Below, one piece after another: positions 14,819 through 51,959 of a DNA stretch of 64,000 nucleotides. Every line of letters begins with the position of its first letter. Position 1 is the stretch's first letter. A program made the translations under genes and the position numbers. The notes beneath the pieces are model-generated. The model did not search any database and was not told the origin of the DNA. It saw nothing but the letters and a program-made list of their open reading frames with translations. The stretch is from Terriglobia bacterium (GTDB lineage Bacteria > Acidobacteriota > Terriglobia > Terriglobales > Acidobacteriaceae), in assembly GCA_020073385.1 (NCBI GenBank), contig JAIQFH010000031.1, forward strand, positions 10,233 through 74,232. Direction: 5' to 3'.

Positions 14819-15621
14819 ACCAGTCCTCGACGGGCCGCGGACTCTTCGATCTGAGTGGTCGAGTCGCGATCGTGACCGGTACCAGCCGCGGACTGGGGCA
14901 GACATTTGCGCGCGCTCTCGCTCGCGCCGGCGCTGACCTCGTGCTCACCAGCCGCAATGGCGCGTCCCTCAAGGAGTTTGAGGCCGAGATACAAGCGCTG
15001 GGACGTCGTGCATCGTCACTTGAACTGGATGTTCGCGATCATGCCAGCATCGAGCGCATGGTGGCTTCGGCGGAAGATGCTTTCGGGCATCTCGACATTC
15101 TGGTGAACAATGCGGGATGCAACATTCGTAAACCTGCGATCGATGTCACATGGGAAGACTGGAATCAAATCCTCGACACGAATCTTCGCGGAAGCTTCTT
15201 TGTGGCTCAGGCGGCGGCGCGGCGCATGATCCCGCGCGGCTACGGCCGCATTATCAATATCGGTTCGGTGACTAGCGTCGCGGGCTACGCTGGTCTCGCT
15301 CCCTACGGAGCGAGCCGCGGAGGCATCCGGCAACTAACGATGAGCCTTGCCGATGACTGGGGCAAACACGGAATCACGGTGAACTGCCTGGCGCCCGGAT
15401 GGTTCCGCACCGAGCAGAACAAGATTCTTTACGAGGATAAAGAATGGGTCGAACACCTTTCCGAACGCATTCCCGTAAAGCGTCCGGGCCGACCTGATGA
15501 CCTGGAATCGGCCGTGGTATTTCTCGCGGCGGAGTCGAGCCGCTACGTGACTGGCCAGACACTGCTCGTCGACGGAGGCATTTCGACCGGCGCCGTGCGA
15601 GCGTTGCCCAAAACTCGCTGA
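14815..15621 (+). CDS. SDR family oxidoreductase (gluconate-5-dehydrogenase/KduD-like)
   Basis: ORF 14746..15621. GTG at 14815 overlaps the upstream stop (GTGA). 'VAIVTGTSRGLGQ', 'NNAG', 'YGASRGG' (Y-x3-R/K region). Confidence 0.85.
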   Translation: MNQSSTGRGLFDLSGRVAIVTGTSRGLGQTFARALARAGADLVLTSRNGASLKEFEAEIQALGRRASSLELDVRDHASIERMVASAEDAFGHLDILVNNAGCNIRKPAIDVTWEDWNQILDTNLRGSFFVAQAAARRMIPRGYGRIINIGSVTSVAGYAGLAPYGASRGGIRQLTMSLADDWGKHGITVNCLAPGWFRTEQNKILYEDKEWVEHLSERIPVKRPGRPDDLESAVVFLAAESSRYVTGQTLLVDGGISTGAVRALPKTR

Positions 15622-15622
15622 T

Positions 15623-17581
15623 CTATTGATGAATTCTCGCCGCCCAGCCTCCGCCGCTCGCGAGTTGCAACTTCAACTTCGTGGCTCGATTCACCTGGGT
15701 CGTGGTCTTGCGATAGTCACTCGCGTTTCGATCCGCATTCACCCCATCCTGATAGGTATCCATCGTGAAGTTTCCATCGGGCAAGAACGACAGATCTATA
15801 TCGAGCGTGCGCGGACTCCAGTCGTTCATCGCCCCGACGTACCAATCCTTCCCATTCCTCCGCGCAACCACAACATAATCTGCAATGCGCGCGTCTAGCA
15901 CCTTGGTTTCGTCCCACTCGGTTGGAACAGGCCCGAGAAACTCCATGGTCTCGGGTTCTCGCAAGTAGTTTGACGGACTATCGGACAACATCTGCAACGG
16001 AGCGTCATAGACAACGTACATCGCCAACTGATGGCAGCGCGTGCCCATGGCCATGGGCTGACTATTGATCGCAGCGAACGTAGCTTTGGTCGCATTGCGC
16101 ATCGCGCCCGGTGTGTAGTCCATCGGACCGAGGAACATCCTGGTAAACGGCAGCGTTACGTTGTGTTCGGGTTCCGATTCCCTGCTCCACTTGCTCCACT
16201 CCATTCCGCGCACACCTTCGGCGTTGATCAGGTTGGGCCAGATGCGGGTCATGGACGCAGGCTTCTGGTCTCCGTGAAAATCCACCAGCATATGGCGCTT
16301 CGCGGCCTCGCGGCACACGCGATAAAAATAGTCGATCATGATCTGGTCGCTGCGCTGCATGAAATCGACTTTGATTCCCTTCACCCCCCATTTTTCAAAT
16401 TGATCGAGCGCAGGAATGAGCTGATCGTCGAGCGTCTTCCACGACGCCCATAGAATGATTCCGACATTCTTCTGTTTGGCGTAGGAAACCAACTCTTCCA
16501 TGTTGAGTTCCGGCGTCACCTCGAGCAGATTGCCCAGTTTGTACCAGCCATCGTCCAGAATGATGTAGGGGATTCCGTATTTCGCAGCGAAGTCGACGTA
16601 GTACTCGTAGGTTTTCGTATTAATTCCAGCAGGAAAATCGACGCTGGAGATGTTCCAGTCGTTCCACCAGTCCCACGCAACTTTGCCCGGCTTGATCCAC
16701 GATGTGTCCTCGAACTGCGCCGGCCGCTGCAGCAGATAGACAATCTGATTCGTGAGCAAATCGCCATCGTGGTCAGCGATACCGATCACGCGCCAGGGAA
16801 ACGTCCGCGTTCCTGACGTTACGGCGATATAGTCGGCGGTTTCCACGGGCTTGTAATCACGATCGCTGGTTTGCACTTCCTTCGTTGGATACGGTGGAAA
16901 GGTCGCAGCCAGACCAGGCCCGCCGGTTCCGCGCAACCAAAGGCCGGGATAGTCTTCGAGATCAGACTCGGCGATCGCAAGCTTCGCTCCCTGGCCGACG
17001 TCGATAATGGCGGGCAGCGTGGCGATGAATTCCGGAGCAATCTCGCTTAAATGTTGTGGCAGGTATTTGCGCTCGTTGTGCGAATAGAAGCTGTCTTCCT
17101 GCGGATAATAAACAACATAGTTCGTTGGGAAATTGAACGCCGACTCTTCGCCGTAAACTTTTACTTTCTCCTGCGGCAGCGATGTTTCGAAGCGGTAGGC
17201 CACGCCTTCGTTGTAGGCGCGGAATACAACGGAATACCCGCCATCCATTTTCAGCCGCAGCTCATTGTAGTGGTCCCGAATCTTGGCAAACTTCTGACGA
17301 ACTACGGGTTCAACCACCTGATCTGTTGAGTGCGTTTTAGCATCGATGACTTTGGGTTGCATACCCAGCTTGTTGTGCTCCACGTCCAGCAAAATCGTGG
17401 CGTTCTCCAGCACGGCCCTGCCCTTCAGAATCAGGTCATAGCGAATCCGATCCGCGGTTCGGATTCTGAGCTCGATTCGCCCATCCGGCGAGCGCAGATC
17501 GTGACTCGACTGCGCCGCTCCCTCTTGAATGAAAACACTGCTTAGAATTGCGAGAATGGCCAGTGCGAAAAGCGCCCTCAT
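15623..17581 (-). CDS. Glycoside hydrolase family 97 (alpha-glucosidase-like), secreted
   Basis: Signal MRALFALAILAILSSVFIQEGAAQ. 'SPDGRIELRIRT...YDLILKGRAVL', 'YIILDDGWY', 'WGVKGIKVDFMQRSDQIMIDYF...VDFHGDQKPASMTRIWPNLINAEGVRGMEW' match my recollection of GH97. Confidence 0.85.
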   Translation of the reverse strand: MRALFALAILAILSSVFIQEGAAQSSHDLRSPDGRIELRIRTADRIRYDLILKGRAVLENATILLDVEHNKLGMQPKVIDAKTHSTDQVVEPVVRQKFAKIRDHYNELRLKMDGGYSVVFRAYNEGVAYRFETSLPQEKVKVYGEESAFNFPTNYVVYYPQEDSFYSHNERKYLPQHLSEIAPEFIATLPAIIDVGQGAKLAIAESDLEDYPGLWLRGTGGPGLAATFPPYPTKEVQTSDRDYKPVETADYIAVTSGTRTFPWRVIGIADHDGDLLTNQIVYLLQRPAQFEDTSWIKPGKVAWDWWNDWNISSVDFPAGINTKTYEYYVDFAAKYGIPYIILDDGWYKLGNLLEVTPELNMEELVSYAKQKNVGIILWASWKTLDDQLIPALDQFEKWGVKGIKVDFMQRSDQIMIDYFYRVCREAAKRHMLVDFHGDQKPASMTRIWPNLINAEGVRGMEWSKWSRESEPEHNVTLPFTRMFLGPMDYTPGAMRNATKATFAAINSQPMAMGTRCHQLAMYVVYDAPLQMLSDSPSNYLREPETMEFLGPVPTEWDETKVLDARIADYVVVARRNGKDWYVGAMNDWSPRTLDIDLSFLPDGNFTMDTYQDGVNADRNASDYRKTTTQVNRATKLKLQLASGGGWAARIHQ

Positions 17582-25874: not shown

Positions 25875-26081
25875 CTGCGCGAACTTTGGATGCCAGGAGT
25901 GTCTTCTTTCCCCAATGCGACCTCTCAGTGCAACCTGTGTATGTTCGGTCAGGTTGCTTCCGAATTGCTGACGGATCCGGAATGTACCGGTACAACACAC
26001 GTATGCCGTATACATGCAGATCATCCGCATCAGCAAAAACGAAAGTATCTCGTTATATGTATCGCTTGGAAGCCCTGCCGA

Positions 26082-27734
26082 TCATCCTTTCATATCAACG
26101 ACATAATCGAAGTCAAGGCCCGCGCTGTGCTCCGCCGAACTAATGTCTTTGCGTCGGCCAATCCAAAAGTAATCGTTGCCGTTCCAGTCCTTCGCATATT
26201 TCCACAGCCTTTGAACACGCAGGCCGGTGCGCGGTATCTCCTCTTCTCGGAGTTGCCAGGATTCCTCCAGAATCCGCGTACGATACTGCGGATTCTCAAT
26301 GCTTGCCGCCTCATCAGTGCGTGCGCGCCGGAGGTACATTTCCGAAACTGCAGAACCAGAAATAGATCTCTTGCGTCTGGGTACGTAAGGAATCCAATGC
26401 GAAGGTACAGGGCTCATCAACCGAAAAACCGGCATCGGGGAACCATTGGGGGGCTCTGTCGCAGATTCACGCCTGTTCTTGCCTTGAGCGGATTCAACAT
26501 CTCCGCGGTCAATCTTCTCGCCGGTTTGGTCCGTGTAGTGCTGTTCAACGGCCCAGACACTATTGGAGAGCTCATCGGGCACAAAATGGATCTCTTCCAC
26601 ACTATCCGTTTGAGCAAGAGTTGGAACAATGTTCGGCAAATACAGATAGCTGCCATCGACCTTGCTACTGCTCCCGTCTTGGCTGGACAGCGTAAAAACG
26701 GACCAAGCTTCCCCGCCCCATTCTTTGAGCGTGGGCTCCAAATCGGTTGCAATCCCGAACGAGTCGATGACGCGCACGCGTGAAAGCCGTTGTATGTCGC
26801 CCGGCTGCATCTCCACTGGTATGCAACACCAGTTATCGCAGTCGATCATCAGAAATTCTGCAAGGAGCATCTGCAAGAAGTTCGGTTCCGCGCTCGCTAG
26901 CAAGGTCACATTGGTATCGGCATCCTCGAACTCCCAGAAGCGCGCAGAAGGCATACCCGCAACCCGCAAGCTTCGTGGTAGCAGGCGAAAAGTCCTTTCC
27001 TTTTCCACGGAGAGACCGCTGACACTATTGACGTCAAAGTTGTACCAGTCCAATTCACGGCCGTCGTATTCGGACACGTGAAGAGTCAGACCTTCTCCTC
27101 TCAAATCACACTCATATTCAAGGCGCGAGGAATTCCACCAAGGCGAATGATTTTCGGTTTCAGTTTCAATGATTGATTCGAGTGGTTCACAGCCGAGTGG
27201 ATCGGTCCTGTTCGGTATCTTATTGATGGGGATCGAGGAGGCTACAATCTCGACCTGAGCGATCCCGCCCGTGTTTTCCGCTTCAAATTCGCCTGCCTGC
27301 CAGGCCCGTGCAAGAAGGTGCAAGGGATCTTTGATCCTAGCTTCGAATCCCTCCAACAAGTTTGGCGTTGTCGTATTCGGCAAGAGTTGTTGCGGTTCCC
27401 GGCCAGCGCCAATCACGACCTCAACCTGCGGAAGTTTAGTCCACACGGGCGCTCCCCCGGACTCGGTCCTTAGAGATTCGGCTGTCGTCGGCCCGGTCCG
27501 GAGAACAGACTGAGAAGCACGGTACGAAGCTGCTGGCTCAGTGCCTAGCTTCACATCGAAGGCGTACCTGCCATCGCGATCACTGGTCTCCAATGCAGGC
27601 GTTCTACGAGAATTATTTCTTACCCCACCTCTTCTGACGTGGATGGTGCCCCTCTCGTCCGCAACCGTACGGGATACCGCTACTCTAGGTGGTTCTGACG
27701 CTTTGTCATTTGCCTGTACCCTTCTGCTTGTCAT
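26082..27734 (-). CDS. Giant-operon protein E (550 aa), no recognised domain
   Basis: ATG overlaps the stop of D (ATGA). Motifs 'LLARAWQAGEFEAE' and 'ARFWEFEDADTNVTLLASAEPNFLQMLLAEFLMIDCDNWCCIPV'. No signal peptide. Confidence 0.8.
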   Translation of the reverse strand: MTSRRVQANDKASEPPRVAVSRTVADERGTIHVRRGGVRNNSRRTPALETSDRDGRYAFDVKLGTEPAASYRASQSVLRTGPTTAESLRTESGGAPVWTKLPQVEVVIGAGREPQQLLPNTTTPNLLEGFEARIKDPLHLLARAWQAGEFEAENTGGIAQVEIVASSIPINKIPNRTDPLGCEPLESIIETETENHSPWWNSSRLEYECDLRGEGLTLHVSEYDGRELDWYNFDVNSVSGLSVEKERTFRLLPRSLRVAGMPSARFWEFEDADTNVTLLASAEPNFLQMLLAEFLMIDCDNWCCIPVEMQPGDIQRLSRVRVIDSFGIATDLEPTLKEWGGEAWSVFTLSSQDGSSSKVDGSYLYLPNIVPTLAQTDSVEEIHFVPDELSNSVWAVEQHYTDQTGEKIDRGDVESAQGKNRRESATEPPNGSPMPVFRLMSPVPSHWIPYVPRRKRSISGSAVSEMYLRRARTDEAASIENPQYRTRILEESWQLREEEIPRTGLRVQRLWKYAKDWNGNDYFWIGRRKDISSAEHSAGLDFDYVVDMKG

Positions 27735-30700
27735 GGCGCCACGCGTTTCTGGTTCCGTTCAATAATTGAACGGGCATTTTCATTTTCCTTTGGAATACTG
27801 GACTTCCGTTGCCAGCCGAATGATTCCTTGGCCCAAGGTATGTAATCAGTCTTTGGTGCCAAAGGGATCCGGGCACTCTTCCCCTTTGCAGGCACCAAAC
27901 TGAACGCCCGCAAACCGAAACGGGTAATGCTCCCTTCCATGGAAGAGAGCGAACGAATACGCAAGAGCCGGATTGTTTCTTTCACAAGTAAAGCCAACTG
28001 CTCTTCGCTCCACGCGGTCTGCCTGTCATTCGCTGCGACACCTAAAAGGAAAGCATTGGGGGCTTGGCACTGCGGTGCGTCACGGTTGATGGCAATGGCC
28101 CCGGTGTGACTGGAACTGGGTTTGAAGACCGCCCACTCGGCCGCCACAAATCCTGCAAGAGGCGGCTGAGGGTTCGCACCATGAAGAAGCAGGTGACTGC
28201 CTACATACAGAGTCTCAGGATGCTTTGCATTGTCCCGTCTAGCATCATCAGGATTGGTGCTTTTGATGATCTTTGACACTCTGGCTTCAAGCGGGAGACA
28301 GTCAGCCATTTTGTACAACGAGACCAGCGGCTTCTGGATGTGCTGCCAGCGCTCCAGGATATCGGCAACCGGTGCCGGCGTTCCGAAATCGGAAATTGGA
28401 ATACTGTACGGCGGCCAGATTGGAAGTGCCTCCCCGTCGCAAGCTGTCTGCAATGCCCTAGCAACCGCCTGTAGTCCTTCGGCGGAACCAAGCTGGCTTC
28501 GTTTCACCTCTATGGACGCAAGCACCTCCTGAACATACCTGGCATAGGCATCCGGATTCGCAATAATCTCTTGAATGGCGTGCAGACGCAACGCTTCGGG
28601 AAGGCCGAACTTTGCCAAGGATCTCAGGTCGGTCTCCAATGCTGCTTTCTTTTTTCGAAGATCCTCGATCTCCTTATCACGGTCTCGCAGGGCGGACTGA
28701 TCACCGCTATCTTCTTGGCCAATGGTTCTCGCCGACCCAAGCAACGAGATCAACTCGCCACTGATCCTGGCCACGACACTCTTAAGGGTATTCCCTGCCG
28801 GATCCATCATAGGGAGGAGGCTCTCGACTCTTGTCAGAAGGCCATCCACCGCCGCCCGCTTAACGTCGAACAGGTCCACCTGCTTGGAAGGATCACTTAA
28901 AGGCTGCAAGTCCGTTGGGGTGATCGCCCTTGATTGCGAGATAACTTGTCGTAGGATCATTGCGCGATCCAGCAGTTCCGCTACACTCGGAACGTTCCCC
29001 GACTTGAACGCAAGATTGAAACTCAGCGGACACTCCTGATTCAAGAAGGCGTCGAGACTGCGGTCTGGCAACGGCCCGAACTTCCGACTCAACTCGCTGT
29101 TCTGCTGCTCCCAAAGACCGACAATGTGCGCCCGGCTGAGGAGTTTGACTAGCGCCTGCCCTCCCAACAAAATGTCTACCGGATCCAGGCCAAGATCCGA
29201 CTTCAGGGAAATGCTTCGGACGTCAATCTGTTCAGGCGATTTCGAGTTAGATACCGTCACCTGCACGACGCTTTGATCGAATCCTGAAAAGGCAGTTGCG
29301 CTAATTTTCGCCAACAACGGCTCGGCGATGATGCGGGGATTGGTCGTTGTCGCATCCACTATCGGAGAGGAGTCTATAAACAAGACACGATGCGGTGAAC
29401 TTTGGCCGTTCCTCCGAATCCTGACAAACTCTACTTCTCCGGGAGGCATTCCTCCACTCAGACATTGCATCCATGCGCTCACTCCAGCCGTATTACCGAG
29501 CGCCAGTTGATGCACGCTCTCCGCAACCACGAGGTCGCAGAACGCATCTTTCTCCTCCTGTAACTCATCCAGTAGCTTGATCACTTCTTCGCGTCTGGTT
29601 CCGTCGCCCTGGTTCCTCAATTGTGTGGCATTAGCCAAGAGCTTCTCGCCGTCTAGCAATGGCGAGAGAGCTGCCGCATTGTCCAGACCACGGGCGACTG
29701 AATAGTCGGTCCTGTATTCGTAAATCAAAGCATCCTGGCCCCGGTCGTGCAGCCAGCGCTCCGCGTGATATCCCAATATTTCATTCAGCCGAATGCCTTT
29801 CCGAAGTGCATTTAAGGTCCTTAACGCTTTTCGTACTCGGCGCGAGCACAGATTGAGCTGAAAAGGCCTCTTGTCACCGCCGAAACGGATTGCGGCAGAG
29901 CGAAGAATTCCAGCAGTCGTAGCCTGGGCGATGCTCGGAGCTATGACGTATCCGTCACTGTCCCCAGTCGCCGACTCGGTTCGCAGTTTTCCTATCATCC
30001 CGTAGTAGCCAATCAACAATTGCTTGTTGCCAGCTCTACGCTGAGCAGATAAGCGAAATGCCGCAAGGGAGGTCTGCCACGCGTCCGTGCGATGGTCGAC
30101 CAGGTCCAGCATCTCAAGTAGAAGAACTTCCAACTGGGTATCCGGAGTAGATGCAAGGAGACTGAGTGCATCGCTGAAATTACTGACTCGTTCGCGCAAG
30201 CCCTTCAGATTCGGATCTTGCGAGTTTGCCATTACAGCTATGGCATCTGGGAGGCCGCCTACGTCCTTTCCAGATTTCACAATTACTTCGGAAAGAAGCG
30301 AACTGAGGGCCAGAAGTACCAACCGGTACAACAGCGGAGTGTCGCGGTCTTCGGCCTCGGGATCCCCGAGCTCAAGTTCAGAGACGCGCTTGCGCAGTAG
30401 GTCTTTCAGATATTGGGCAGGCTGCCGATTCTCAGTTATGCCGCCCACTAAGGGGCAAACCACCGGGCGAGCACTACTACCTTTTGGTTTATCGGTGCCG
30501 TCTATACGGGGAGATACAGGGAGAACCTGGAGGATGCGACGGAGCACCTCGCCCTGATTCGGCGAACCTGGATGCATGACCGGAAGCCTAACTGCTGACT
30601 TGTCGAGGCTTTTGAGGGTTAGATCGCAGAATCGTCTTACAAAATTGAAACTTTTCTGTTCCTGAACCGGCGCGCTTCCGGGAGCTTCCACATCACTTGG

Positions 30701-32080
30701 AATCAGGATAGGCAGAATGCCGTACGGATTTCGATCGACGCGCATCGCAGGTAAGGGACCGCGGGCAAAAGCGTTGTTTGCCAAGTAATCCGCCAATGCT
30801 CGTGGGTCCATCAGTGATGGTGCCAGCCAATCAAAACCAGCTGTTAGGAATGGCAGCAACACCCTAGCCATCGCCTTGGCTTTACTTTCATCCTGCTGCT
30901 CCGCATTCCGCACTTTGTATAGGAGCGGGGAATCCACGGCCAAAGCATTTGCAAGGACGTCCGCATCAGTGGCGTCATTGACAGTCTGGCAAGCGTCCTT
31001 GTCATCCGTGGCAGCCGCCTGGCATTTGCGCTCGAAGTAACACGCTTCCCTCAGACCGGCAACGGGATCCGAGACCCACGGTCTGTATGCTGAACTTTGA
31101 CGTGGCGAGGTATTTGTGGGAGCATCTTGGGGAATAAAATCAATTTCCCCAGCAGCAATCTTGTCTTCAATAAATTCCTTTAGTTGCTCGGCCGCATCTA
31201 TCCGCCCCAGCCCTACCGCGATAATCCACTCTGAGGTAAGGGCCATATCCACATAGCTACCGGTTAGGCGGAGGCCCATGCCTAGCTTTACCGCTGCGTC
31301 GAAGTCAGAAAGCCAGCCGCCGAGGTTCAGACATGCTGGGCTATACGCCACGTCTTGTGCAATATCCGAGCTCTGTCCAATCAATGCAAGCTCACCGTTC
31401 TTCATCAAACCATACAGACCGATGCGCCGGGGCAATCCAAGAATTCCACACTTCGGTTGCGTGTCCCTCGGAGCGGTGTGGCCGGATCGCTGAAGGTGAA
31501 GCGCCCTATGGAAGCCAACCTGTGCGACGAGTGTTTGCCACGCCTCGTTGGCACTGGGATTGTCCCACCAATGAGCTCCTGCAACCTTACGATATGCATC
31601 TATCGCTGCGACCTCCTCGTCGGTTTCCGATTCAGGCTCTGTCCAATGCAAACTATCGTCGAAATACCAACGTACCCATAATTCCCTTTGCTGAATCTGG
31701 ACATCTTTAAATGCAAGGGCTTTCACACCATCTTGCTGCGGATTCTTGCTCGATGCCCAGGTAGGATTCGTGAGAGCGATTTTCAAACGCGCCCCCGGCG
31801 GGATGACCCGGTACTCCATCCTGAGAGGCAACAGAAGAATAGGTGCCGCAGGGAGCAGTTCCTGGGATTGGGGCGGACCACTAAACGGCGGCGCTGCTAG
31901 CCCCGCAACCATGGCGGATGATCCCTTGAAGAAATCGCGACGTGTGATCTGGAAACCGCTCTCTTTAGGCTTTATGAGCAGGTGCTGAGACTGCCCAATC
32001 ACGCTATTTCGCGCTACGACAGGGAACGTCTTTGATCGACGCCTACTTGAAGGAGATAGAGACTTAGTCGCTTTTAGCAT
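27731..32080 (-). CDS. Giant-operon protein D (~1449 aa) with twin-arginine (Tat) signal motif
   Basis: ORF 27731..32173. I prefer the ATG at 32080, which shares one nucleotide with the stop of C (TAATG). 'ITRRDFFKGSSAMVAGLAAPPF' is encoded at 31883-31945. The rest is orphan sequence with a coiled-coil-like stretch 'DKEIEDLRKKKAALETDLRSL'. Confidence 0.8.
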   Translation of the reverse strand: MLKATKSLSPSSRRRSKTFPVVARNSVIGQSQHLLIKPKESGFQITRRDFFKGSSAMVAGLAAPPFSGPPQSQELLPAAPILLLPLRMEYRVIPPGARLKIALTNPTWASSKNPQQDGVKALAFKDVQIQQRELWVRWYFDDSLHWTEPESETDEEVAAIDAYRKVAGAHWWDNPSANEAWQTLVAQVGFHRALHLQRSGHTAPRDTQPKCGILGLPRRIGLYGLMKNGELALIGQSSDIAQDVAYSPACLNLGGWLSDFDAAVKLGMGLRLTGSYVDMALTSEWIIAVGLGRIDAAEQLKEFIEDKIAAGEIDFIPQDAPTNTSPRQSSAYRPWVSDPVAGLREACYFERKCQAAATDDKDACQTVNDATDADVLANALAVDSPLLYKVRNAEQQDESKAKAMARVLLPFLTAGFDWLAPSLMDPRALADYLANNAFARGPLPAMRVDRNPYGILPILIPSDVEAPGSAPVQEQKSFNFVRRFCDLTLKSLDKSAVRLPVMHPGSPNQGEVLRRILQVLPVSPRIDGTDKPKGSSARPVVCPLVGGITENRQPAQYLKDLLRKRVSELELGDPEAEDRDTPLLYRLVLLALSSLLSEVIVKSGKDVGGLPDAIAVMANSQDPNLKGLRERVSNFSDALSLLASTPDTQLEVLLLEMLDLVDHRTDAWQTSLAAFRLSAQRRAGNKQLLIGYYGMIGKLRTESATGDSDGYVIAPSIAQATTAGILRSAAIRFGGDKRPFQLNLCSRRVRKALRTLNALRKGIRLNEILGYHAERWLHDRGQDALIYEYRTDYSVARGLDNAAALSPLLDGEKLLANATQLRNQGDGTRREEVIKLLDELQEEKDAFCDLVVAESVHQLALGNTAGVSAWMQCLSGGMPPGEVEFVRIRRNGQSSPHRVLFIDSSPIVDATTTNPRIIAEPLLAKISATAFSGFDQSVVQVTVSNSKSPEQIDVRSISLKSDLGLDPVDILLGGQALVKLLSRAHIVGLWEQQNSELSRKFGPLPDRSLDAFLNQECPLSFNLAFKSGNVPSVAELLDRAMILRQVISQSRAITPTDLQPLSDPSKQVDLFDVKRAAVDGLLTRVESLLPMMDPAGNTLKSVVARISGELISLLGSARTIGQEDSGDQSALRDRDKEIEDLRKKKAALETDLRSLAKFGLPEALRLHAIQEIIANPDAYARYVQEVLASIEVKRSQLGSAEGLQAVARALQTACDGEALPIWPPYSIPISDFGTPAPVADILERWQHIQKPLVSLYKMADCLPLEARVSKIIKSTNPDDARRDNAKHPETLYVGSHLLLHGANPQPPLAGFVAAEWAVFKPSSSHTGAIAINRDAPQCQAPNAFLLGVAANDRQTAWSEEQLALLVKETIRLLRIRSLSSMEGSITRFGLRAFSLVPAKGKSARIPLAPKTDYIPWAKESFGWQRKSSIPKENENARSIIERNQKRVAP

Positions 32081-34794
32081 TAAGGCAGCAACCTCCCGGC
32101 TGGAATTACCACTCGCACTGGCCTCTGAAACATCACCGAGGCAAGACTTGCTGCATGGCGATTTGCGCCCCATTTGCCCTGATCATTGGGGTTCTCTCTA
32201 CCATCCAACTTTGCGAGGTGAATTTCGCTACTGAAGTCTACGTAGCCTGATTTGCTCACGGTGACATAAGGCCAGGAGAGAGCGTCCCAAGTGGTAGGCG
32301 GATTGCCTGACTTCTTTTTTGGGTCGCGAGTTCCGACGTCAACCCCAAAACGGTAACGGCCGGGTGGCTGATACAGCACAAAGAATGACCGTTCATCTAG
32401 GTCGTTCACCGTCACTGGAAACCCGCAGTAGTAGATATCAGGTCGCAACTCACCCGAAAAAATCGGCTCAATATCTGTGCCAGCTCCGACCTTCCATTCC
32501 TTCGTTGATTGCTGGTTGAGGAGCACGTGAAATCCCGGATAACGATTTACGATCTCACCGCGAATGATAAAAACGATCTGGCCTTTTGGGCCCCCTCTTA
32601 AGTTCGAACCGAGCTGGTTGCCCCACGTGTTGATTGCCTCTATATCGTCTGTCATGTCGTCCGACGCTGGGGCGCCGCGGTCCCAGAAGCGTGCGAACAC
32701 TGTCGTTCGCAAATCGCTGGGGAATTCGCGCCACAGCAGCTCTTGATTCATTTCGTGGTTGCAGCCGACAAGAAACCCCTCGATGTATGCCGTGTCAGTA
32801 ACGAGCAGCCCGACTCTGTCCTTTGGGACCTCGTTAACACCCGGGAGGAGTTCTTCCGGACTCTCCTTGGCTAGATAGGAGGCCATTGGCGTTGGAATCC
32901 GCGGACCGCGCAGAATGAGAGTGGGATCCTCTATGCTGATGTCGCCCCCGTTCGAGATACGGCGCCTGAGTTGAAGAGCCGGCATCGCTGAAATTTGTGC
33001 AGCAATGCTGGCGCTAACACTCGCCGCATCGATATTCTTCATGTAAAAAAGCTCGTTCGTCTGCGGTCGGACACCAAAAAGCAGCTGTTCGCCCTGTTGT
33101 TGGCCGGTCTGGGGAAATAGCGCGTAGGTCCATTCTTTGTAATCATCTGCTCTCGGTTCCCAGCACCCAGCCTTTCGAACGGCGCTGCTGCCACCCTCAA
33201 GGGTCGCGGGGATCCCATAATCTGTGTCGGGAAAGCCGAGCAATGGTGGTGCACTCACCGTTTTGCGAAGCGTCCCCGCAATCTCTCGTCGGACACGTTC
33301 AGTTCGCTTCGCAAGGACCTTCCGCTCAACCAACGAGACAACACCGGATGGCACGCCGCTCTTGACAAAGGAGGCGCTCAACGTAGCGCCTGGCTCGGTG
33401 CCCCGCAGCGCAGGCAGAAAACGGTCACCGAGGATCACAAGAAGGGTCGGGTCGAGGCGTGAAAGGTGCTTTTCCTGAATTCGCTCGTTGAGCGCTTTCG
33501 CAACCTGAACCTGCATTATCAATCGGTTTGCAGCGAGAATCTCTCCGGCTTGCGACCAACACTGCGCCAAAAATTCTTCCTGATGGCGACGCACAATTCG
33601 TGCCCCTGTTCCGGCGGCAATGCGGTACCGGCGGTCAAGATTCACTTGGTTAAACCATGGGCTCTTGCCGGGCCATGGTTTGCCGTCGTCCGGAGCTTCA
33701 ACCTTTTCCTCTCGGCGGAAACGACAGCCATATGCAGGTAGCGTAAAGAGTGGGTCTTTCTCACGCGGCCCGTCCTCCGTCACATCCTCACCTGCTAAGG
33801 ACTCTTTCAATGTGGCTGTGAGACGTTTTGTCAGGCCATCTTGGGAATAGGCAACCGGTTCGGATTTGGGCGTGCGCAAAGCGCCTTGCGCTACGAACGT
33901 CAATAAAGGTTCCAAATAGTCAGGGTAGTATCCAGGATCGCCACCGAATATGGTCTCTCCGCAAAGCCCTTTCTTGCTGTCACCGACCGCAGCCAGATCG
34001 ATCGGCTTCAAATTGGTCGCCAGTGCTTCGAAGTCTTGTTGAGCCGAGACTGTGCAGCGCCATCGAGCGTAGTAGGGAAGCTTTAGGTCGGGTTGGTTCT
34101 GAGCAGCTTTCCAAGCAGGAGCGTTCCAAGGACTCGGATTTCCACTCTCGCCTAAGCCACGCAACCGCCCAGCTTCGTAAGTTGGAACGAGGAACACTGA
34201 GTACGATTTGTTTTTCTCTAATTGTCGTGGACACAACAACCGGCACAAACTAGGCGACTTAGTGACAACTCTATCGTCATCATTAGTCTTTTCAGTGCTA
34301 TCGGCCTGTACGTGGGCCCACGCCCAGGATTGCGACAGATCAGGAAGACTGTTTTCTGGAGATGTCACAGTGATGCAGGGCAGCGGTGAGGTCCCGGCTC
34401 CCCCGACTACGAACTCATCATCTTTAAGTGCCAGCAGTGCGATCCATGGTCGTAGTCGAGCGTTATTCGGGCCTTCTGCTTCGTCCAACGTGTAGCGCCA
34501 TGCGAGATCTGCTGGAACCATCTCAGCGTGAGCAAAGTAGTTGAACTCAAACCCGACGCTGCCGGGAGCGGGTTCCATGCGAGTGATAATCGCGTTGTCC
34601 GGTCTCAGAACATCGCCCGCTCCATAAAGCGCGATCTCCGTTGGTGGCTCTATGGGTGCGCCTTGCTGCACACCATCTGCAACTAGTTGAATGCTGACCG
34701 TGGCATGTCGGCGAACGCCGGCTTCCGTCGGAGCAAGCGCAATGTCCGCCAGCGGAGTTCTCGTCCAAGGAAGAAATTTGAACTGCTTGGGCAT
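32080..34794 (-). CDS. Giant-operon protein C (904 aa), no recognised domain
   Basis: Start lies 3 nt after the stop of B (TGAttcATG). N-terminus 'MPKQFKFLPWTRTPLADIAL...IALYGAGDVLRPDNAIITRMEPAPGSVGFEFNYFAHAEMVPADLAWRYT'. Confidence 0.8.
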   Translation of the reverse strand: MPKQFKFLPWTRTPLADIALAPTEAGVRRHATVSIQLVADGVQQGAPIEPPTEIALYGAGDVLRPDNAIITRMEPAPGSVGFEFNYFAHAEMVPADLAWRYTLDEAEGPNNARLRPWIALLALKDDEFVVGGAGTSPLPCITVTSPENSLPDLSQSWAWAHVQADSTEKTNDDDRVVTKSPSLCRLLCPRQLEKNKSYSVFLVPTYEAGRLRGLGESGNPSPWNAPAWKAAQNQPDLKLPYYARWRCTVSAQQDFEALATNLKPIDLAAVGDSKKGLCGETIFGGDPGYYPDYLEPLLTFVAQGALRTPKSEPVAYSQDGLTKRLTATLKESLAGEDVTEDGPREKDPLFTLPAYGCRFRREEKVEAPDDGKPWPGKSPWFNQVNLDRRYRIAAGTGARIVRRHQEEFLAQCWSQAGEILAANRLIMQVQVAKALNERIQEKHLSRLDPTLLVILGDRFLPALRGTEPGATLSASFVKSGVPSGVVSLVERKVLAKRTERVRREIAGTLRKTVSAPPLLGFPDTDYGIPATLEGGSSAVRKAGCWEPRADDYKEWTYALFPQTGQQQGEQLLFGVRPQTNELFYMKNIDAASVSASIAAQISAMPALQLRRRISNGGDISIEDPTLILRGPRIPTPMASYLAKESPEELLPGVNEVPKDRVGLLVTDTAYIEGFLVGCNHEMNQELLWREFPSDLRTTVFARFWDRGAPASDDMTDDIEAINTWGNQLGSNLRGGPKGQIVFIIRGEIVNRYPGFHVLLNQQSTKEWKVGAGTDIEPIFSGELRPDIYYCGFPVTVNDLDERSFFVLYQPPGRYRFGVDVGTRDPKKKSGNPPTTWDALSWPYVTVSKSGYVDFSSEIHLAKLDGRENPNDQGKWGANRHAASLASVMFQRPVRVVIPAGRLLP

Positions 34795-34797
34795 GAA

Positions 34798-37700
34798 TCA
34801 CACCTCGACCAGTGTTGCGGGGTCTGCAACGTGGGAGGCAAAAATCCTCCCCACTTTTCCGCGCGATTTTGCGTCGCTGCGGACCTTACTGAATGTGCCG
34901 GATACTTCCGCTTTCACTCCCGAGCTCGTTGCTTCGTCGGAAGCGACAATATAGGTAGTCGGCTGAACGTGGATTTGTTGTTTCAACAGGTCTTGATGCA
35001 CTGATCCGAACGTCTGTAGACCGGAAATGTCCGCGAAAGATCGTGCATACCAGCTTGAGGCAAACCTCTCCGGTATTATGTGCCCTCGGCCTAGATAGGT
35101 TGGCGTCTGTTCGTCATCGAGGAAGATGGTCTCATATTCGTCTGTCATCTCCACTACTGGGCTACTAGGTCCCACCAACGTGGCGGTTCCCTGGAGTTCA
35201 AATCCGCTGACATGGCTTTCACTTGCGGGAGCCTTGAGCTGCTCTTCGCCGCTGAGATCAAGGAACTGTCCTATCGCGAACCCAGCGCGGGCGTCTGTCG
35301 TTCGTGTCTCCAGCCCTTTCGCTGTCAAGTCAAACGTTCGAAACTGTCCTGCTAGGCGTGCTGTACCCAACTTCTCGATCGCCATCTTGAGCGGCAATGC
35401 GCGCTGAGAGAATCGCACGCCTGCAGCTGGATCAACAAATAGCCTCAGCGGTTTGTTGCTATCAGAAGCCTCCTCCGGGGGAGTCTCAACTCTCGCAAGG
35501 GCCACACCAGTCATCACTGTCTGCGGGACTATAGCCTCCCAGTATCTGGATTCCTTGGCAGCAGCCTTCAGGACCTCCAAAGGATCCAGTTCCGGCAGGG
35601 TCTCAGGCCTTTCCTGTCCGAATTTTGCGTTTACAGAGATCTTCACCTTATGCCCAAGAACTTCCGCCCATAGCTTTCCATTGAGGAAGTAGGGATTCGG
35701 GCCTCGCACGCGCAAGTCTCCACCAATCGCGCACATGATGTCTCCGTTGCGCAGCAGTGCGAGTGAAAGGCCTAGCGCAGCATCAAACGCAAATGGACTG
35801 AATAGCAGGATCGCATCAAAATAAGCATTCCCCTTAGCATCGAAGTCCCCAACAAGCCAAATGTGAGGCCCGTTGGCATAAATATCCAGGCAAGCGCCCA
35901 TCTGCGCACTATTGGAAGTTAAGGCAAAGTAGCCGGCCAGAGTCGCCTGAATATCCTTGTTCCCGAATCCGATGGTAAGGCGCTTCAACGCTGGGAAATT
36001 CGGGGGGGTGGGAAACTGGGGGTGAAATCCGCCAACAGAGAGAACGAAGTCCGCATTGTCGCCCCAACCAGTGCGAAGAGCCATCTCGCCGCTTAGTGGC
36101 CAGTCCAGGAGGCAGGAGTTGACAATGGCCGCATCCAGCGCAATCTGACGAGTATCAAAGTCGATCAGACCTAAGAAATCTATATTCAACTGGAGGATCG
36201 GCTCTATCTCATTCGGTAGTATTGCCGCGATCTGGCCTAGAATCAGAACCCGTGTTGCCGCACCCAACTCCAGGATGATACCTACTTTGGCCTGCACCAG
36301 GCTTGGCGTACCCCACTCAATTCGCGCACACGGTCCGAATAAGTGATGATCCTTTTGGGGGGGGAATACGGAAGCCATTGTCTCCAGAATCCGCACGGAA
36401 TCTTTAATTGGATTGTCAGGAAATAGCAGATTGTCCAAACTGCCGTCGCGAAGTGCTCCACGCAAGGTTTCGACGCTCGCGGTTCTATGCAGTCCCACAT
36501 AGCCGCCGACCCCAGTGAGTTTAAAACCAAGGCCAAGCTGAATTTCAAATTGGCCAAAGATGCTCGCGAGGAATGAGTAGCTGAGCCCTGCCGGTGGTTT
36601 AGTGTCCAGAATGGCAAAAGCCGAAAGGCTGAAATTCTCGAAGCCCAGGGCAAGTGCGCCTTTGTATCCGTTTTCGTCGATAATGAGCGTTCCGCCACCG
36701 GCAATCGGGCCGGAACTAACAGCGATGCCGATACCGTCTGGGCGCTTAAAAGTAACTTCAAGATCTGCCTTACCCAAGAGACCGGGCCTCGCAAAATCGA
36801 CAACGCCCTTGATGCCAATGTCTTGCACAATAGCAGTAGCCGGTCCGATTGAGACACCACCGGTGACAGCCGCCGCCAGGTTCAGGCTGTTCTCTTCTGC
36901 TTTGCCTGAGAAGTCGATCGTTTGGATGAAGACAGGTCCAAACTGCTTCCGGACCGGAATGGTGTAGTCGAGACCTGCCCCTCCCTGAAAGTGAAGGCCT
37001 CGTTTGTATGACAAGGTGAGAGCGAAATCGAAAGGTAGTCTCGAGGGCTGTTTGGGCATTACAGCCTGGAGAAAGGCGTCACCTTCGCTCGCCGCGAGGA
37101 CCAAGGCTCCACCCTTTAGGACGAACTCGGCACCTACATCACGTTCAGCAGTAGATGTGGTCACCAGCAAGCCAAGAGAAACGCTACTAGCCTCGAGTCG
37201 ACTTCCTGTCAGTTGCCCTATAACGATTGCGGGCGCCGAGCCCCCATTGATCACAACCCCGACGCGCAGAGTGGTGTCGAGCGCTACAGGACCGCCACTT
37301 TGATCCTTTGCCGAAATGTCCAGTCCAGCCTCCCGGATCTCAAGGAGGACATTGGCCCCAACCGAACCTTCAACAACAAGTGACGAGCCTTTACTCAGCG
37401 GAGTGGCCGCCGCTGCCGTACCCAAAAGGAACGGCTGCAACGCTACCCCTTCGAACGGTCTACCATTTGCACTCGCAACTTGTGCCAACAGAGGCATGAT
37501 CAAGAGACCGATTTCTGCGAAGCCCACATCTCGGTCCAAGAGTTCGTACACAGGCAACTCAATCGCCCGCTGCACGGCGAGTTCGTCTGCAGATAGACTC
37601 GGATACAGTCGCGAAAGCAGTCGGTTTGGTGCCAGTCGTTTTCGTGCTGGGATGGCCAAGCTATGCGCGGCGACTTCGATTAGGTCGAGAAATCTCGGAG

Positions 37701-38238
37701 CATCGAATGTCGCCAACCCCCAACCGTAGGCCTCTTTGAGCAGTCTTCCCGGACTTTGCAGCAGCCATGGAATCCGATCAAAATGCAGAATCCGCTGGGG
37801 AGGATTAATGGTAAGAAGCCCGAATGCTTGGAGGGCGGCATAAAGCCCAGGCCACTCGCCCTCCATATAGGTAAGGAGAACATCGTCTAATATTTGTGCA
37901 GGTGCCTGATCAAAAAAGTCTGGTGGCACCGTGACTCCTTGAAACATGGCCCGGAGATCGCGAAGTTTCTCGAAAAACTTAGCTAGGTGCGAACTGAGTT
38001 CGACATATTGTTGCAACTGGCTTTCAGCGGGAGATGTAAGATCTATGTGGTCGAGGGCGTCCGTAAGTTCCGCGAGGGCGCCGCGAACCCCATTCAAGGA
38101 ACTCGGTGCTGGAATATCCCAACCAAGCCTCTGCAGCCACTCGCGGAACCGACTTTCAGATGTCAGCCAAGTATCGGTGAGCCTCGCAGCCAAGCTGAGG
38201 TCGCCTATGATACGTTGGAAAGTAAACTGAAATGACAT
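34798..38238 (-). CDS. Giant-operon protein B (1146 aa); central/C-terminal region resembles DUF6603 (recollection only)
   Basis: Start lies 5 nt after the stop of A. The Gly/Ala-rich, beta-strand-like region 'GYKGALALGFENFSLSAFAILDT...GFKLTGVGGYVGLHR...WGDNADFVLSVGGFHPQFPTPPNFPALKRLTIGF' reminds me of DUF6603. Confidence 0.8.
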   Translation of the reverse strand: MSFQFTFQRIIGDLSLAARLTDTWLTSESRFREWLQRLGWDIPAPSSLNGVRGALAELTDALDHIDLTSPAESQLQQYVELSSHLAKFFEKLRDLRAMFQGVTVPPDFFDQAPAQILDDVLLTYMEGEWPGLYAALQAFGLLTINPPQRILHFDRIPWLLQSPGRLLKEAYGWGLATFDAPRFLDLIEVAAHSLAIPARKRLAPNRLLSRLYPSLSADELAVQRAIELPVYELLDRDVGFAEIGLLIMPLLAQVASANGRPFEGVALQPFLLGTAAAATPLSKGSSLVVEGSVGANVLLEIREAGLDISAKDQSGGPVALDTTLRVGVVINGGSAPAIVIGQLTGSRLEASSVSLGLLVTTSTAERDVGAEFVLKGGALVLAASEGDAFLQAVMPKQPSRLPFDFALTLSYKRGLHFQGGAGLDYTIPVRKQFGPVFIQTIDFSGKAEENSLNLAAAVTGGVSIGPATAIVQDIGIKGVVDFARPGLLGKADLEVTFKRPDGIGIAVSSGPIAGGGTLIIDENGYKGALALGFENFSLSAFAILDTKPPAGLSYSFLASIFGQFEIQLGLGFKLTGVGGYVGLHRTASVETLRGALRDGSLDNLLFPDNPIKDSVRILETMASVFPPQKDHHLFGPCARIEWGTPSLVQAKVGIILELGAATRVLILGQIAAILPNEIEPILQLNIDFLGLIDFDTRQIALDAAIVNSCLLDWPLSGEMALRTGWGDNADFVLSVGGFHPQFPTPPNFPALKRLTIGFGNKDIQATLAGYFALTSNSAQMGACLDIYANGPHIWLVGDFDAKGNAYFDAILLFSPFAFDAALGLSLALLRNGDIMCAIGGDLRVRGPNPYFLNGKLWAEVLGHKVKISVNAKFGQERPETLPELDPLEVLKAAAKESRYWEAIVPQTVMTGVALARVETPPEEASDSNKPLRLFVDPAAGVRFSQRALPLKMAIEKLGTARLAGQFRTFDLTAKGLETRTTDARAGFAIGQFLDLSGEEQLKAPASESHVSGFELQGTATLVGPSSPVVEMTDEYETIFLDDEQTPTYLGRGHIIPERFASSWYARSFADISGLQTFGSVHQDLLKQQIHVQPTTYIVASDEATSSGVKAEVSGTFSKVRSDAKSRGKVGRIFASHVADPATLVEV

Positions 38239-38243
38239 CTAAC

Positions 38244-40196: not shown

Positions 40197-40356
40197 GCAG
40201 CACCTATTCAGAAACGAAGACTCTATCCAACGCCATAGGACAATTCCCCTGGGCCAAACATCCTTCCACACGCACCGCCGCCCCCGTTTTGCCCGGAGTT
40301 GTCCATTTTTCGCGGCTGAATTGGTCGTTCGCCATCAACAATGAATCGCATAATGT

Positions 40357-49155: not shown

Positions 49156-50511
49156 ATGATCAGGATAATAGTTGCTCTGCTTACGTTCGGTTGTTTATGG
49201 CCGGGCCTCGGTATCGCCCAACAGGTCGAGTCAACGTTAACGGTCCAGAAGCCTGCGACCGACACCGCTACCCAACCCGCGGGACGGTCGCCGGTTGCCC
49301 TCGAAGACCTGGTTCGCGAGGCTCTGCAGAAAAATCCGGCGGTTCAGAGCGCCTTGCATAGTGTGGAAGCACAGCGGCGACGCGTACCGCAAGCCAAGAC
49401 ACTACCCGACCCCACGGTTGGGATCGGCTGGGCTGGAAACATCACGCCTTTCAGCGTGCAATCGGGCGACCCTTCGAGCTACCGCGCCGTGGCTGCCAGC
49501 CAACAACTCCTTTATCCCGGCAAGTTGAAGCTACGCGGCGAAATTGCTTCGAAGGAAGCGGATGCTGCGTCGTCAGACCTTGAGGCGGTTCGCCGGCGCG
49601 TAACCACCGATGTAAAGACGGCCTACTTCGAATACTGGTTCTACGACAAGGCTATTCAGACCACGCTGAAAGACAAGGATCTGCTCTCTAAGCTCTCCCA
49701 GATCGCCGAAGCCCGCTATCGAGTTGGAAAAGGCGTTCAGCAGGACGTGCTCAGATCACAGGTGGAGATTTCATTACTGCTGCAACGGCTCACGGTTCTG
49801 CAACAGCAGAGAAATACTTCGCAGGCACGTCTGAACACTCTGTTGGCGCGCAGTCCTGAAGCGCCACTCCCACCTGCCGAGAATATTGAACGATCCCCGC
49901 TGAACTACTCGCTGGACGATCTCTACAGACTAGCGCGGCAGAATGATCCCGGCCTTCACCGCGAGGAGCAGATGATTGAACGCAACCAACTTGCCGTAAA
50001 CCTCGCGCAGAAGGATTACTACCCGGACCTGAGCGTCGGATACATGTATCAGCAGCGGCCCATGATGCCCGACATGCATGGTATGACGTTCACCGTGAAC
50101 ATCCCGGTCTTCTACAAGAGCAAACAACGCGAGGAAGTGAGACAGGCCACAGAGGAGCGGCTGTCAGCCGAGACCAGCCGCGACAATCGCAACAACGAAC
50201 TGAATTTTGAACTCAAGCAGCAATACCTGGCGGCCAAGGCTTCGGATGAACTTCTGCGGTTGTTCTCTGAGGGTGTGGTGCCACAGTCATCGTTGGCACT
50301 GGAGTCCTCGATGTCTGCTTATCAGGTTGGCACCGTGGATTTCCTCAGCGTCATAGGAAATTTCTCGACAGTCTTGAATTACGAAATCGACTACTACCGC
50401 GAGTTAGCGAATTACCAGACTGCGCTGGCCCGCATGGAGAGCATGGTGGGCGTGGACCTGACTTCGACGGCCGCGCAACCGGGCAACCAACACCCGGCGG
50501 GAAGGGAGTAA
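49156..50511 (+). CDS. TolC-family outer membrane efflux protein (CusC-like)
   Basis: Signal peptide and two OEP repeats ('LSLEDL...', 'YYPDLSVGYMYQ', 'VDFLSVIGNFSTVLNYEIDYYRELANYQTALARME'). Confidence 0.8.
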   Translation: MIRIIVALLTFGCLWPGLGIAQQVESTLTVQKPATDTATQPAGRSPVALEDLVREALQKNPAVQSALHSVEAQRRRVPQAKTLPDPTVGIGWAGNITPFSVQSGDPSSYRAVAASQQLLYPGKLKLRGEIASKEADAASSDLEAVRRRVTTDVKTAYFEYWFYDKAIQTTLKDKDLLSKLSQIAEARYRVGKGVQQDVLRSQVEISLLLQRLTVLQQQRNTSQARLNTLLARSPEAPLPPAENIERSPLNYSLDDLYRLARQNDPGLHREEQMIERNQLAVNLAQKDYYPDLSVGYMYQQRPMMPDMHGMTFTVNIPVFYKSKQREEVRQATEERLSAETSRDNRNNELNFELKQQYLAAKASDELLRLFSEGVVPQSSLALESSMSAYQVGTVDFLSVIGNFSTVLNYEIDYYRELANYQTALARMESMVGVDLTSTAAQPGNQHPAGRE

Positions 50512-50514
50512 ACA

Positions 50515-51948: not shown

Positions 51949-51959
51949 GGAGACTCGTT

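Follow-up and report, generated by a model that had tools for sequence, protein, structure and literature searches.

Comparative analysis of a 64,000-nucleotide stretch of the genome of a Terriglobia bacterium (Acidobacteriota; GenBank assembly GCA_020073385.1, contig JAIQFH010000031.1, positions 10,233 to 74,232; hereafter, the window) revealed that four adjacent minus-strand genes, designated B, C, D and E, encode a four-subunit, non-enzymatic, nucleoside triphosphatase (NTPase)-free core paired with an exchangeable protein, usually a hydrolase, whose place in the window is taken by the product of the upstream gene A. No curated family except DUF6603, which matches B, covers any subunit of this quartet, and we rate it as a categorically new, uncharacterised system, with structure searches covering C and, by means of a moderate-quality model, B. 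As a functional interpretation, to which we assign a probability of roughly 35%, the products of B-E would be subunits of one large ATP-independent assembly carrying the exchangeable enzyme to extracellular targets. The five genes are located in the window as follows:

38244-40271, minus strand: gene A, 675 amino acids (aa) when read from a GTG start
34798-38238, minus strand: gene B, 1146 aa
32080-34794, minus strand: gene C, 904 aa
27731-32080, minus strand: gene D, 1449 aa
26082-27734, minus strand: gene E, 550 aa

A preliminary description of this DNA, made from its letters alone, had reported five minus-strand open reading frames (ORFs) at these coordinates, and all five are present as it gave them. 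The junctions also read exactly as it had them (TGA-gttag-ATG between A and B, TGA-ttc-ATG between B and C, TAATG between C and D, and ATGA between D and E), and on this reading the genes A-E are tightly coupled. With respect to start codons, an AGGTG precedes the ATG at 40196, and A is more likely to initiate there than at the GTG at 40271; the longest ORF of D reaches 32173, but a GGGAGG motif is situated upstream of the coupled start at 32080. The peptide motifs quoted in the preliminary description are all present, and in the alignments of the C, D and E families they coincide with the columns of highest conservation. Its statement that no Walker A motif occurs holds for A, B, D and E, and C has only one loose regular-expression match (GKPWPGKS, residue 371) in an unconserved stretch modelled as coil; no conserved Walker A or HExxH motif was found across the five proteins.

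Recurrence of the B-C-D-E quartet

A scan of one genome per GTDB species yielded at least 592 confirmed relatives, and 80 loci were kept with 10-kb flanks. In these 80 loci, tblastn with the window proteins located B in 74, D in 70 and E in 67, the missing genes being mostly attributable to truncated contigs. Flanks of at least 4 kb on the upstream side and at least 9 kb on the downstream side were available for 59 species-level loci; B, C, D and E all lie on one strand in 58 of them, in the order B-C-D-E in 56 cases and D-E-C-B in the other 2. The window itself presents the four homologues adjacent, co-directional, in the canonical order and with coupled junctions. Dozens of phylogenetically distant genomes have the genes in this same order, which puts the arrangement far beyond chance. 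The preliminary description had proposed such an analysis of gene-neighbourhood co-occurrence and had offered, as an unverified suggestion, that the locus might be a widespread uncharacterised module of co-occurring families; the joint presence of B-E in 58 of 59 loci and the recurrence of the quartet across phyla substantiate this suggestion and show that the locus is not a one-off.

Hosts of the quartet are found among Acidobacteriota, Actinomycetota, Bacteroidota, Pseudomonadota, Myxococcota, Cyanobacteria, Chloroflexota, Bacillota, Nitrospirota, Verrucomicrobiota, Gemmatimonadota and Ignavibacteria, and several haloarchaea carry the module as well (via plasmid records). It resides on plasmids and megaplasmids, and integrases flank a Streptomyces plasmid copy. 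One Bacteroidota metagenome-assembled genome (P01_B01_bin.41) contains two divergent copies of the whole quartet (loci L021 and L067) with different upstream genes.

When only same-frame, stop-free cases are counted, D is fused with E in 5 loci and with C in 1 locus, each fusion being read as one ORF. Apparent B-C fusions in three further loci (L024, L037, L058) and several "C-D" giants were dismissed, being artefacts (read-through or shadow ORFs) that the crude ORF caller creates in GC-rich DNA. Likewise, a protein family predicted on the opposite strand turns up at loci in which E was not mapped, and for this reason it most likely represents shadow ORFs antisense to E. Profile-profile comparison detected no internal homology of C with D or with E; therefore, a single-linkage cluster that contained all three (family 0) had joined them through the real fusion proteins.

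Besides the quartet, no further gene family is conserved in the flanks of the 80 loci, and the conserved unit is therefore B-C-D-E rather than A-E. Thus, the five-gene unit originally proposed has to be reduced to four genes, the position of A being filled elsewhere by unrelated enzymes. The accompanying suggestion that the system has no dedicated energy-coupling enzyme fared better, as no ATPase is present in the unit or conserved beside it. Homologues are annotated as hypothetical in both PGAP and UniRef, with B homologues labelled DUF6603 by PGAP.

Two kinds of accessory genes were encountered within or next to the quartet. An additional protein family is present in four Bacteroidota loci, and the member tested carries an S74 intramolecular-chaperone domain, a domain found in tail fibres and spikes. 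In Nitrospira and Verrucomicrobiae (L010:4709-5518, L017 and L031), a separate gene for a coiled-coil protein of ~270-320 aa intervenes between C and D; many other D proteins have a coiled coil at their N-terminus, and this segment therefore appears to be split from, or fused to, D.

The variable slot and its proposed pairing with subunit B

Of 57 loci, 41 have a gene closely preceding B, at a distance of under 150 nt and in many cases overlapping it by 4 nt, and the family occupying this slot is variable. The most common occupant is a PhoD-like metallophosphatase with a DUF7800 N-terminal domain, which also fills the slot in the haloarchaeon Salinigranum. Peptidases are represented by M23, M15, subtilases, M64-like proteins with an intact HExxH motif (L060, L053, L072 and L033), and NAL1-type trypsin-like serine proteases with an invariant H/D/S triad and a profile match to 7y77 (E 1.5e-16). 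Other occupants include phospholipase D (PLD), tyrosinase, a WD40 protein, DUF2515 and several proteins without a family. A crude hydrophobicity scan found no signal-peptide-like N-terminus in 38 of 39 slot proteins, and these missing leaders are notable because PhoD, M23, M15, subtilases and tyrosinases normally work outside the cytoplasm.

In the window, the slot is filled by A, proteins similar to which occur in only ~4-6 of the 80 loci. Two parts of this protein can be distinguished:

Gene A, residues ~33-390: M64-like metallopeptidase fold with the zinc motif lost (Pfam and PDB matches)
Gene A, C-terminal ~270 aa: no family assigned

The Pfam M64 match spans residues 36-103 (E 6e-13) and only the first ~70 model positions, and PDB entries 4df9 and 3p1v match the start and the end of the domain. 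Alignment with the intact M64-like slot proteins places RELGA in A where these have HExxH, and GYEA where they have GDEY; the same kind of loss is seen in the slot protein of L016. Judging from its sequence, A is thus a catalytically dead pseudo-peptidase that has the M64-like fold but is not an active M64 member, and the "degenerate M64-like fold" noted in the preliminary description is borne out both by the partial matches and by the lost zinc motif.

No universal targeting domain common to all slot proteins was found; a shared C-terminal domain is limited to the trypsin-like and subtilase groups. This domain of ~145 aa is common to proteins with unrelated catalytic domains, namely the subtilase of L025 and the trypsin-like proteins, and it is a candidate for docking on the N-terminal region of B. 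It is helical-looking, with the pattern "...VxWHRxKGPAFV...INGV..." (carriers L003, L031, L079, L080, L058, L071, L077 and L025:4172-6490), and Pfam scans of two of these carriers reported no family in L003 and only the subtilase domain in L025. In a 42%-identical relative of the window locus (L084), the enzyme slot is at the opposite end of the operon, with a PLD-family gene following E after a 3-nt gap, and then a Ser/Thr protein kinase gene (L084:12292-14124 and 14668-15864).

The subunit adjoining the slot, B, is divided into three regions:

36955-38238, minus strand: B N-terminal region (aa 1-428), helical at first and continuing into the initial beta-hairpins; putative adaptor for the slot protein
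35248-36954, minus strand: B DUF6603 domain (aa 429-997), a giant antiparallel beta-meander sheet
34798-35247, minus strand: B C-terminal tail (aa 998-1146), with a low-confidence model; Kelch propellers in some homologues

Residues 429-997 match Pfam DUF6603 (PF20248) over model positions 1-500 of 502 (E 1.3e-104; 351 bits vs. a cut-off of 27). The preliminary description had declared the five proteins to be without recognisable machinery and had overlooked this Pfam family of B. DUF6603 is a family without an assigned function, and no paper in the literature searched, coverage of which is incomplete, mentions either "DUF6603" or "PF20248". Kelch repeats are present at the C-terminus of the B proteins P0125, P0126 and that of L022.

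Evidence for a pairing of B with the slot comes from an alignment of 33 B proteins, in which sequence identity was compared between pairs having the same vs. different upstream families, with permutation of the labels. Same-slot pairs are more similar in residues 1-220 (24.3% vs. 19.1% identity, p=0.0005) and in residues 221-428 (27.5% vs. 20.9%, p=0.0005), with no such covariation in the DUF6603 domain (39.3% vs. 40.2%, p=0.75) or in the C-terminal tail (p=0.35). Common ancestry of the hosts does not explain this pattern, as the PhoD group covers seven distant lineages. A case in point is L025, the B protein of which is nearest to two trypsin-slot loci by its N-terminal region and to a PhoD-slot locus by its DUF6603 domain. 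The simplest reading is that the enzyme and the N-terminal region of B form a cassette that is swapped as a unit, a pattern to be expected if this region binds the slot protein. The N-terminal region of the window B is not specifically closest to those of other M64-slot loci.

The structure of B was modelled by AlphaFold2 from 12 sequences with a predicted local distance difference test score (pLDDT) of 69 and a predicted template-modelling score (pTM) of 0.47; the alignment was shallow because the word-index search for homologues gave few matches (11 for B and, for comparison, 26 for E). The model contains helices at 6-220 and ~35 long antiparallel strands between 224 and 873. The best-modelled part is DUF6603, with a mean pLDDT above 80 in most 10-residue blocks at ~440-870, and values fall below 50 at residues 1019-1146. 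The top Foldseek match is the Deinococcus protein SlpA (E 9e-6), followed by FimD/PapC, LptD, SprA and ApoB100. All matches are giant beta-barrels or beta-belts, with E-values from 9e-6 to 5e-3, template-modelling (TM) scores of only 0.12-0.17 and a root-mean-square deviation of ~20 A, and we read this likeness of the model as that of a very large beta-meander sheet, generic and not indicative of homology. A PDB sequence search with B returned only coiled-coil and helical-bundle noise. B is not a classical outer-membrane protein, since it has no signal peptide and is present in monoderm bacteria and archaea (Streptomyces, Neobacillus, Desulfotruncus and haloarchaea).

Subunits C, D and E and the surroundings of the operon

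Searching 5.8 billion proteins with C gave at least 179 matches, and all 120 among the matches listed are unnamed or hypothetical; by exhaustive hidden Markov model search, the C family comprises 6,843 clusters at 50% identity (E<=1e-3), or 3,862 at E<=1e-30. The window C is 100% identical to LAP86_20310, which places the window in an Acidobacteriia/Terriglobia metagenome-assembled genome. No Pfam family and no PDB profile match was obtained for this subunit. Its AlphaFold2 model (22 sequences, pLDDT 75, pTM 0.67) consists of a beta-rich N-terminal part (~1-310), a helical middle, a disordered segment (480-587) and a confident alpha/beta C-terminal domain (640-900), and Foldseek found no match to it in PDB (best E 0.66) or BFVD (best E 0.58). 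The modelling and structure search advocated in the preliminary description have thus been carried out for B and C, leaving C unmatched and giving for B only the generic giant-beta-barrel likeness. One C homologue has a tachylectin domain, and the N-terminal half of C is matched by proteins from Streptomyces plasmids whose annotation is "VCBS repeat-containing".

D is the largest core subunit (1449 aa in the window, 1350-2900 aa elsewhere). Its family alignment is marked by a conserved N-terminal motif (LLPVRLETRF / VRxYPDD) and a C-terminal one (DEW...APQAxLLAVPP), with a coiled-coil region near profile positions 1130-1296; the only PDB matches of D are to coiled coils. No Pfam family recurs across 25 D homologues; one-off inserts were observed instead, including PKD, FG-GAP and TIG domains, as well as a BGTF surface domain in a haloarchaeal D. 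The window D additionally has an N-terminal extension with the following feature:

31892-31951, minus strand: twin-arginine translocation (Tat)-like motif TRRDFFKG... in the N-terminal extension of D, sub-threshold

This motif scores 17.4 bits vs. a cut-off of 22.7 in Pfam (E 0.0042) and 15.2 bits vs. 16.7 for TIGR01409. A loose twin-arginine match is seen in 10 of 60 D homologues, but the N-termini of these 10, some of them ORFs with uncertain start codons, are coiled coil or start at the conserved motif. A Tat signal in D had been taken in the preliminary description as one of its few handles on the system; lying below both curated cut-offs and not shared by homologues, the motif provides no handle on localisation.

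The conserved core of E begins at ~aa 110-130 (DPLWMLxRQWQxGEFxGED) and is preceded by a lineage-specific extension of ~110 aa; no Pfam or PDB match was found for E. Its close homologues P0137 and P0140 (49-61% identity) carry CarboxypepD_reg/SdrD_B domains (PF13620, PF17210), and a haloarchaeal E is annotated with a lamin-tail domain.

The genes flanking the operon in the window are ordinary and unrelated (an NDH-2-type oxidoreductase, a methyltransferase, TetR, a P-type ATPase and GH97). GC content at 26001-44000, which includes the operon and its immediate upstream region, is 0.53-0.55, slightly under most of the remaining window (0.55-0.60) and compatible with horizontal acquisition. Promoter and terminator scans gave fewer sites than were found in shuffled controls. 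Neighbouring features comprise:

40357-41049, minus strand: 230-aa protein, 86 nt upstream of A; hydrophobic N-terminus resembling a signal peptide
41850-42839, minus strand: BTAD-domain (SARP/AfsR-type) transcriptional activator, ~1.6 kb upstream of A and on the same strand
49156-55771, plus strand: gene for an outer-membrane efflux protein (OEP), then large ORFs of 477 aa and 1106 aa

The 230-aa protein has no Pfam, NCBIfam or PADLOC match and no homologue across the 80 related loci. The BTAD-domain activator could regulate the operon; neither it nor the intervening gene is conserved beside the quartet in other loci. The genes at 49156-55771, only the OEP gene of which was scanned, possibly constitute a tripartite efflux operon and appear unrelated to the quartet.

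Possible functions of the quartet and their implications

Profile scans of A-E and the 230-aa upstream protein against Pfam, NCBIfam, PADLOC and PHROGs, of the kind advised in the preliminary description for each protein, returned only the partial M64 match in A, DUF6603 in B and the sub-threshold Tat motif in D. The absence of any signature of extracellular contractile injection systems (eCIS), Tc toxins, type VI secretion systems (T6SS) or ushers, as asserted from the sequence, was upheld by profile searches, which also gave no match to defence systems, and by the structure searches of B and C. Tc toxins offer the closest parallel in overall layout: a multi-gene operon of very large proteins and no dedicated ATPase, a huge beta-sheet protein (here B), a very large helical coiled-coil protein with binding inserts (here D), a hypervariable enzyme component and no signal peptides, which the Tc toxin components are known to lack. 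There is, however, no sequence relationship. Tc components are associated with the Pfam families VRP1, TcA_TcB_BD, SpvB, RHS/YD and TcdB_toxin_mid, and neither A-E nor 25 homologues of D gave a match to VRP1, TcA_TcB_BD, RHS, SpvB or mid domains; no Tc chains were retrieved when profiles of B, C, D and E were run against PDB (E<=10), and TcB/TcC are absent from the top 50 Foldseek matches for B. The quartet further differs from Tc toxins in that its enzyme is encoded by a separate gene rather than as a C-terminal fusion, in having four core proteins vs. three, and in its presence in archaea.

With eCIS, tailocins and T6SS, the quartet has in common a cytoplasmic assembly (here proposed), mobile loci, exchangeable payloads, adaptor-payload pairing and, in some loci, a tail-fibre-type accessory protein (the S74 chaperone), but no sheath, tube, baseplate (gp25/gp6), VgrG/PAAR spike, tape measure or AAA+/ClpV ATPase was detected by Pfam, NCBIfam and PHROG searches of the window proteins or among the conserved neighbours in 80 loci. 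Giant barrels (SlpA, FimD/PapC, LptD, SprA), the only structural neighbours of B, resemble it in their dozens of long antiparallel strands, and SlpA joins an N-terminal helical part to a huge barrel; B differs from these outer-membrane proteins in having no signal peptide and no sequence similarity to them and in occurring in monoderms and haloarchaea, and, unlike in chaperone-usher systems, no chaperone gene accompanies the quartet. Finally, in polymorphic-toxin and T6SS adaptor-effector cassettes, as here, an enzyme is swapped along with an adjoining part of the core (the N-terminal region of B) and a common docking-type domain is found on unrelated catalytic domains, but the quartet loci have no known adaptor families, immunity genes, trafficking domains (PAAR, VgrG, LXG, WXG, Rhs) or recognised secretion system nearby.

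The explanation that we favour (at the roughly 35% given above) is that B-E form an assembly in which the slot protein (here A) would dock on the N-terminal region of B acting as the adaptor, the giant DUF6603 sheet would serve as a barrel-like container or conduit, and the helical, coiled-coil-bearing D together with E and C would make up a scaffold carrying target-binding inserts. Such a complex would be assembled in the cytoplasm without signal peptides and then act outside the producer on envelope or surface targets, delivery being functionally analogous to that of Tc toxins or tailocin/eCIS payloads but achieved by unrelated proteins. In this scheme we infer physical assembly, docking, extracellular action and delivery, and we base them on what the data show: the joint occurrence of B-E, their fusions, the changing slot families, the covariation of the B N-terminal region with these, the modelled beta-sheet and the lack of known signatures. 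The inserts (Kelch, VCBS, tachylectin, PKD, FG-GAP, TIG, BGTF, CarboxypepD_reg, SdrD_B and lamin-tail) are typical of extracellular binding proteins and hence count for extracellular action. The earlier proposal of an "extracytoplasmic or structural" system is likewise plausible, on the indirect grounds of the accessory domains and the enzyme repertoire and not of signal peptides, which B-E do not have.

Several considerations weigh against this explanation. Neither assembly nor export nor a target has been observed; B-E have no signal peptide or convincing transmembrane helix, no lysis or release genes are conserved near the quartet in the 80 loci, and no immunity-like small gene was found beside the slot enzymes. 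The low TM scores and large deviations of the Foldseek matches mean that a barrel or container is not established for B, the model of which is moderate (pTM 0.47, 12 sequences), and the covariation of its N-terminal region with the slot could alternatively reflect recombination breakpoints within B. In addition, about a quarter of the loci are without a tightly coupled upstream gene (by crude ORF calling), and pseudo-enzymes (A and its counterpart in L016) or non-enzymes (WD40) in the slot fit the notion of a payload less well.

An intracellular role in conflict or abortive infection, with B-E as a cytoplasmic sensor and scaffold activating the adjacent hydrolase upon phage or plasmid invasion, and possibly with B opening a large membrane pore through which peptidoglycan hydrolases and phospholipases reach their substrates so that the cell dies, would account for a patchy, horizontally transferred distribution with plasmids and adjoining integrases, for the lack of signal peptides in all proteins, and for the layout of a conserved core with an exchangeable effector gene that is typical of defence systems. 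Sensors of conflict systems include WD40 and Kelch propellers, and proteases, PLD-family enzymes and metallophosphoesterases are common defence effectors; tyrosinase, M23 and M15, by contrast, would be unusual in this capacity, and the PKD, lamin-tail, CarboxypepD_reg, SdrD_B, VCBS and tail-fibre chaperone domains typify extracellular binders. PADLOC-DB v2 yielded 0 matches for A-E and the 230-aa upstream protein at E<=0.1, and the usual signalling parts, such as an NTPase, a nuclease, TIR or a sirtuin, are absent. The flanks are not conserved, and no recognised defence genes were noticed there, no systematic search having been made. We consider such a role unlikely. The same leaderless slot enzymes, being of a scavenging or remodelling type, could also be displayed or released for the benefit of the producer by a surface layer, an anchor or a non-classical export conduit, e.g., for nutrient scavenging (PhoD, proteases, tyrosinase) or cell-wall remodelling. 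That SlpA, an S-layer/outer-membrane protein, is the best Foldseek match of B, ahead of ushers and the LptD and SprA translocons, is in line with this possibility, as are the surface-protein domains of haloarchaeal D and E and the weak Tat-like motif of the window D. But the structural similarity is generic (TM ~0.15), D homologues do not share the Tat motif, a signal peptide is missing from B, monoderm and archaeal hosts have no outer membrane to accommodate a barrel, and neither transmembrane helices nor an energy source nor anchoring motifs were found, which makes a producer-side structure distinctly unlikely.

Lastly, the large structural-looking proteins, the S74 tail-fibre chaperone protein of some loci and the integrases flanking a Streptomyces copy might suggest the structural module of an unrecognised virus-like or mobile element, with particle proteins devoid of recognisable capsid or tail folds. 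A single GenBank record labelled "Bacteriophage sp." (MT835531.1, our L083) contains a C homologue. This 40-kb scaffold, derived from a human faecal virome, is marked UNVERIFIED and carries no annotation; its pervasive overlapping long ORFs on both strands are suggestive of very GC-rich DNA, and the scaffold is probably bacterial DNA, as IMG/VR (2.9 million viral contigs) has no relatives. A phage origin was accordingly rejected, there being no IMG/VR relatives, no PHROG match and no BFVD structural match for C, and with no replication, packaging or terminase genes conserved nearby, a virus-like module is highly improbable. The remaining probability falls to something else.

Overall, the B-C-D-E quartet may tentatively be viewed as an unrecognised class of ATP-independent nanomachine common to Bacteria and Archaea, loading leaderless enzymes via the B adaptor and delivering or displaying them outside the cell. 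No earlier description of C, D and E, the partners of DUF6603, or of their common setting was found (no Pfam or NCBIfam family; literature coverage incomplete). If true, this would add a third architecture to those of Tc toxins and contractile injection systems, built from folds without solved relatives, and a new route by which prokaryotes, including archaea and monoderms, move folded leaderless enzymes to their targets, with a natural plug-in site (the N-terminal region of B and the docking domain of the slot protein) that could be re-engineered for protein delivery. Whatever its function, the quartet represents a large set of families with thousands of 50%-identity clusters, near-perfect synteny and, in C, a protein without a detectable structural relative, and three nameless families together with DUF6603 now gain a shared context and a testable hypothesis.

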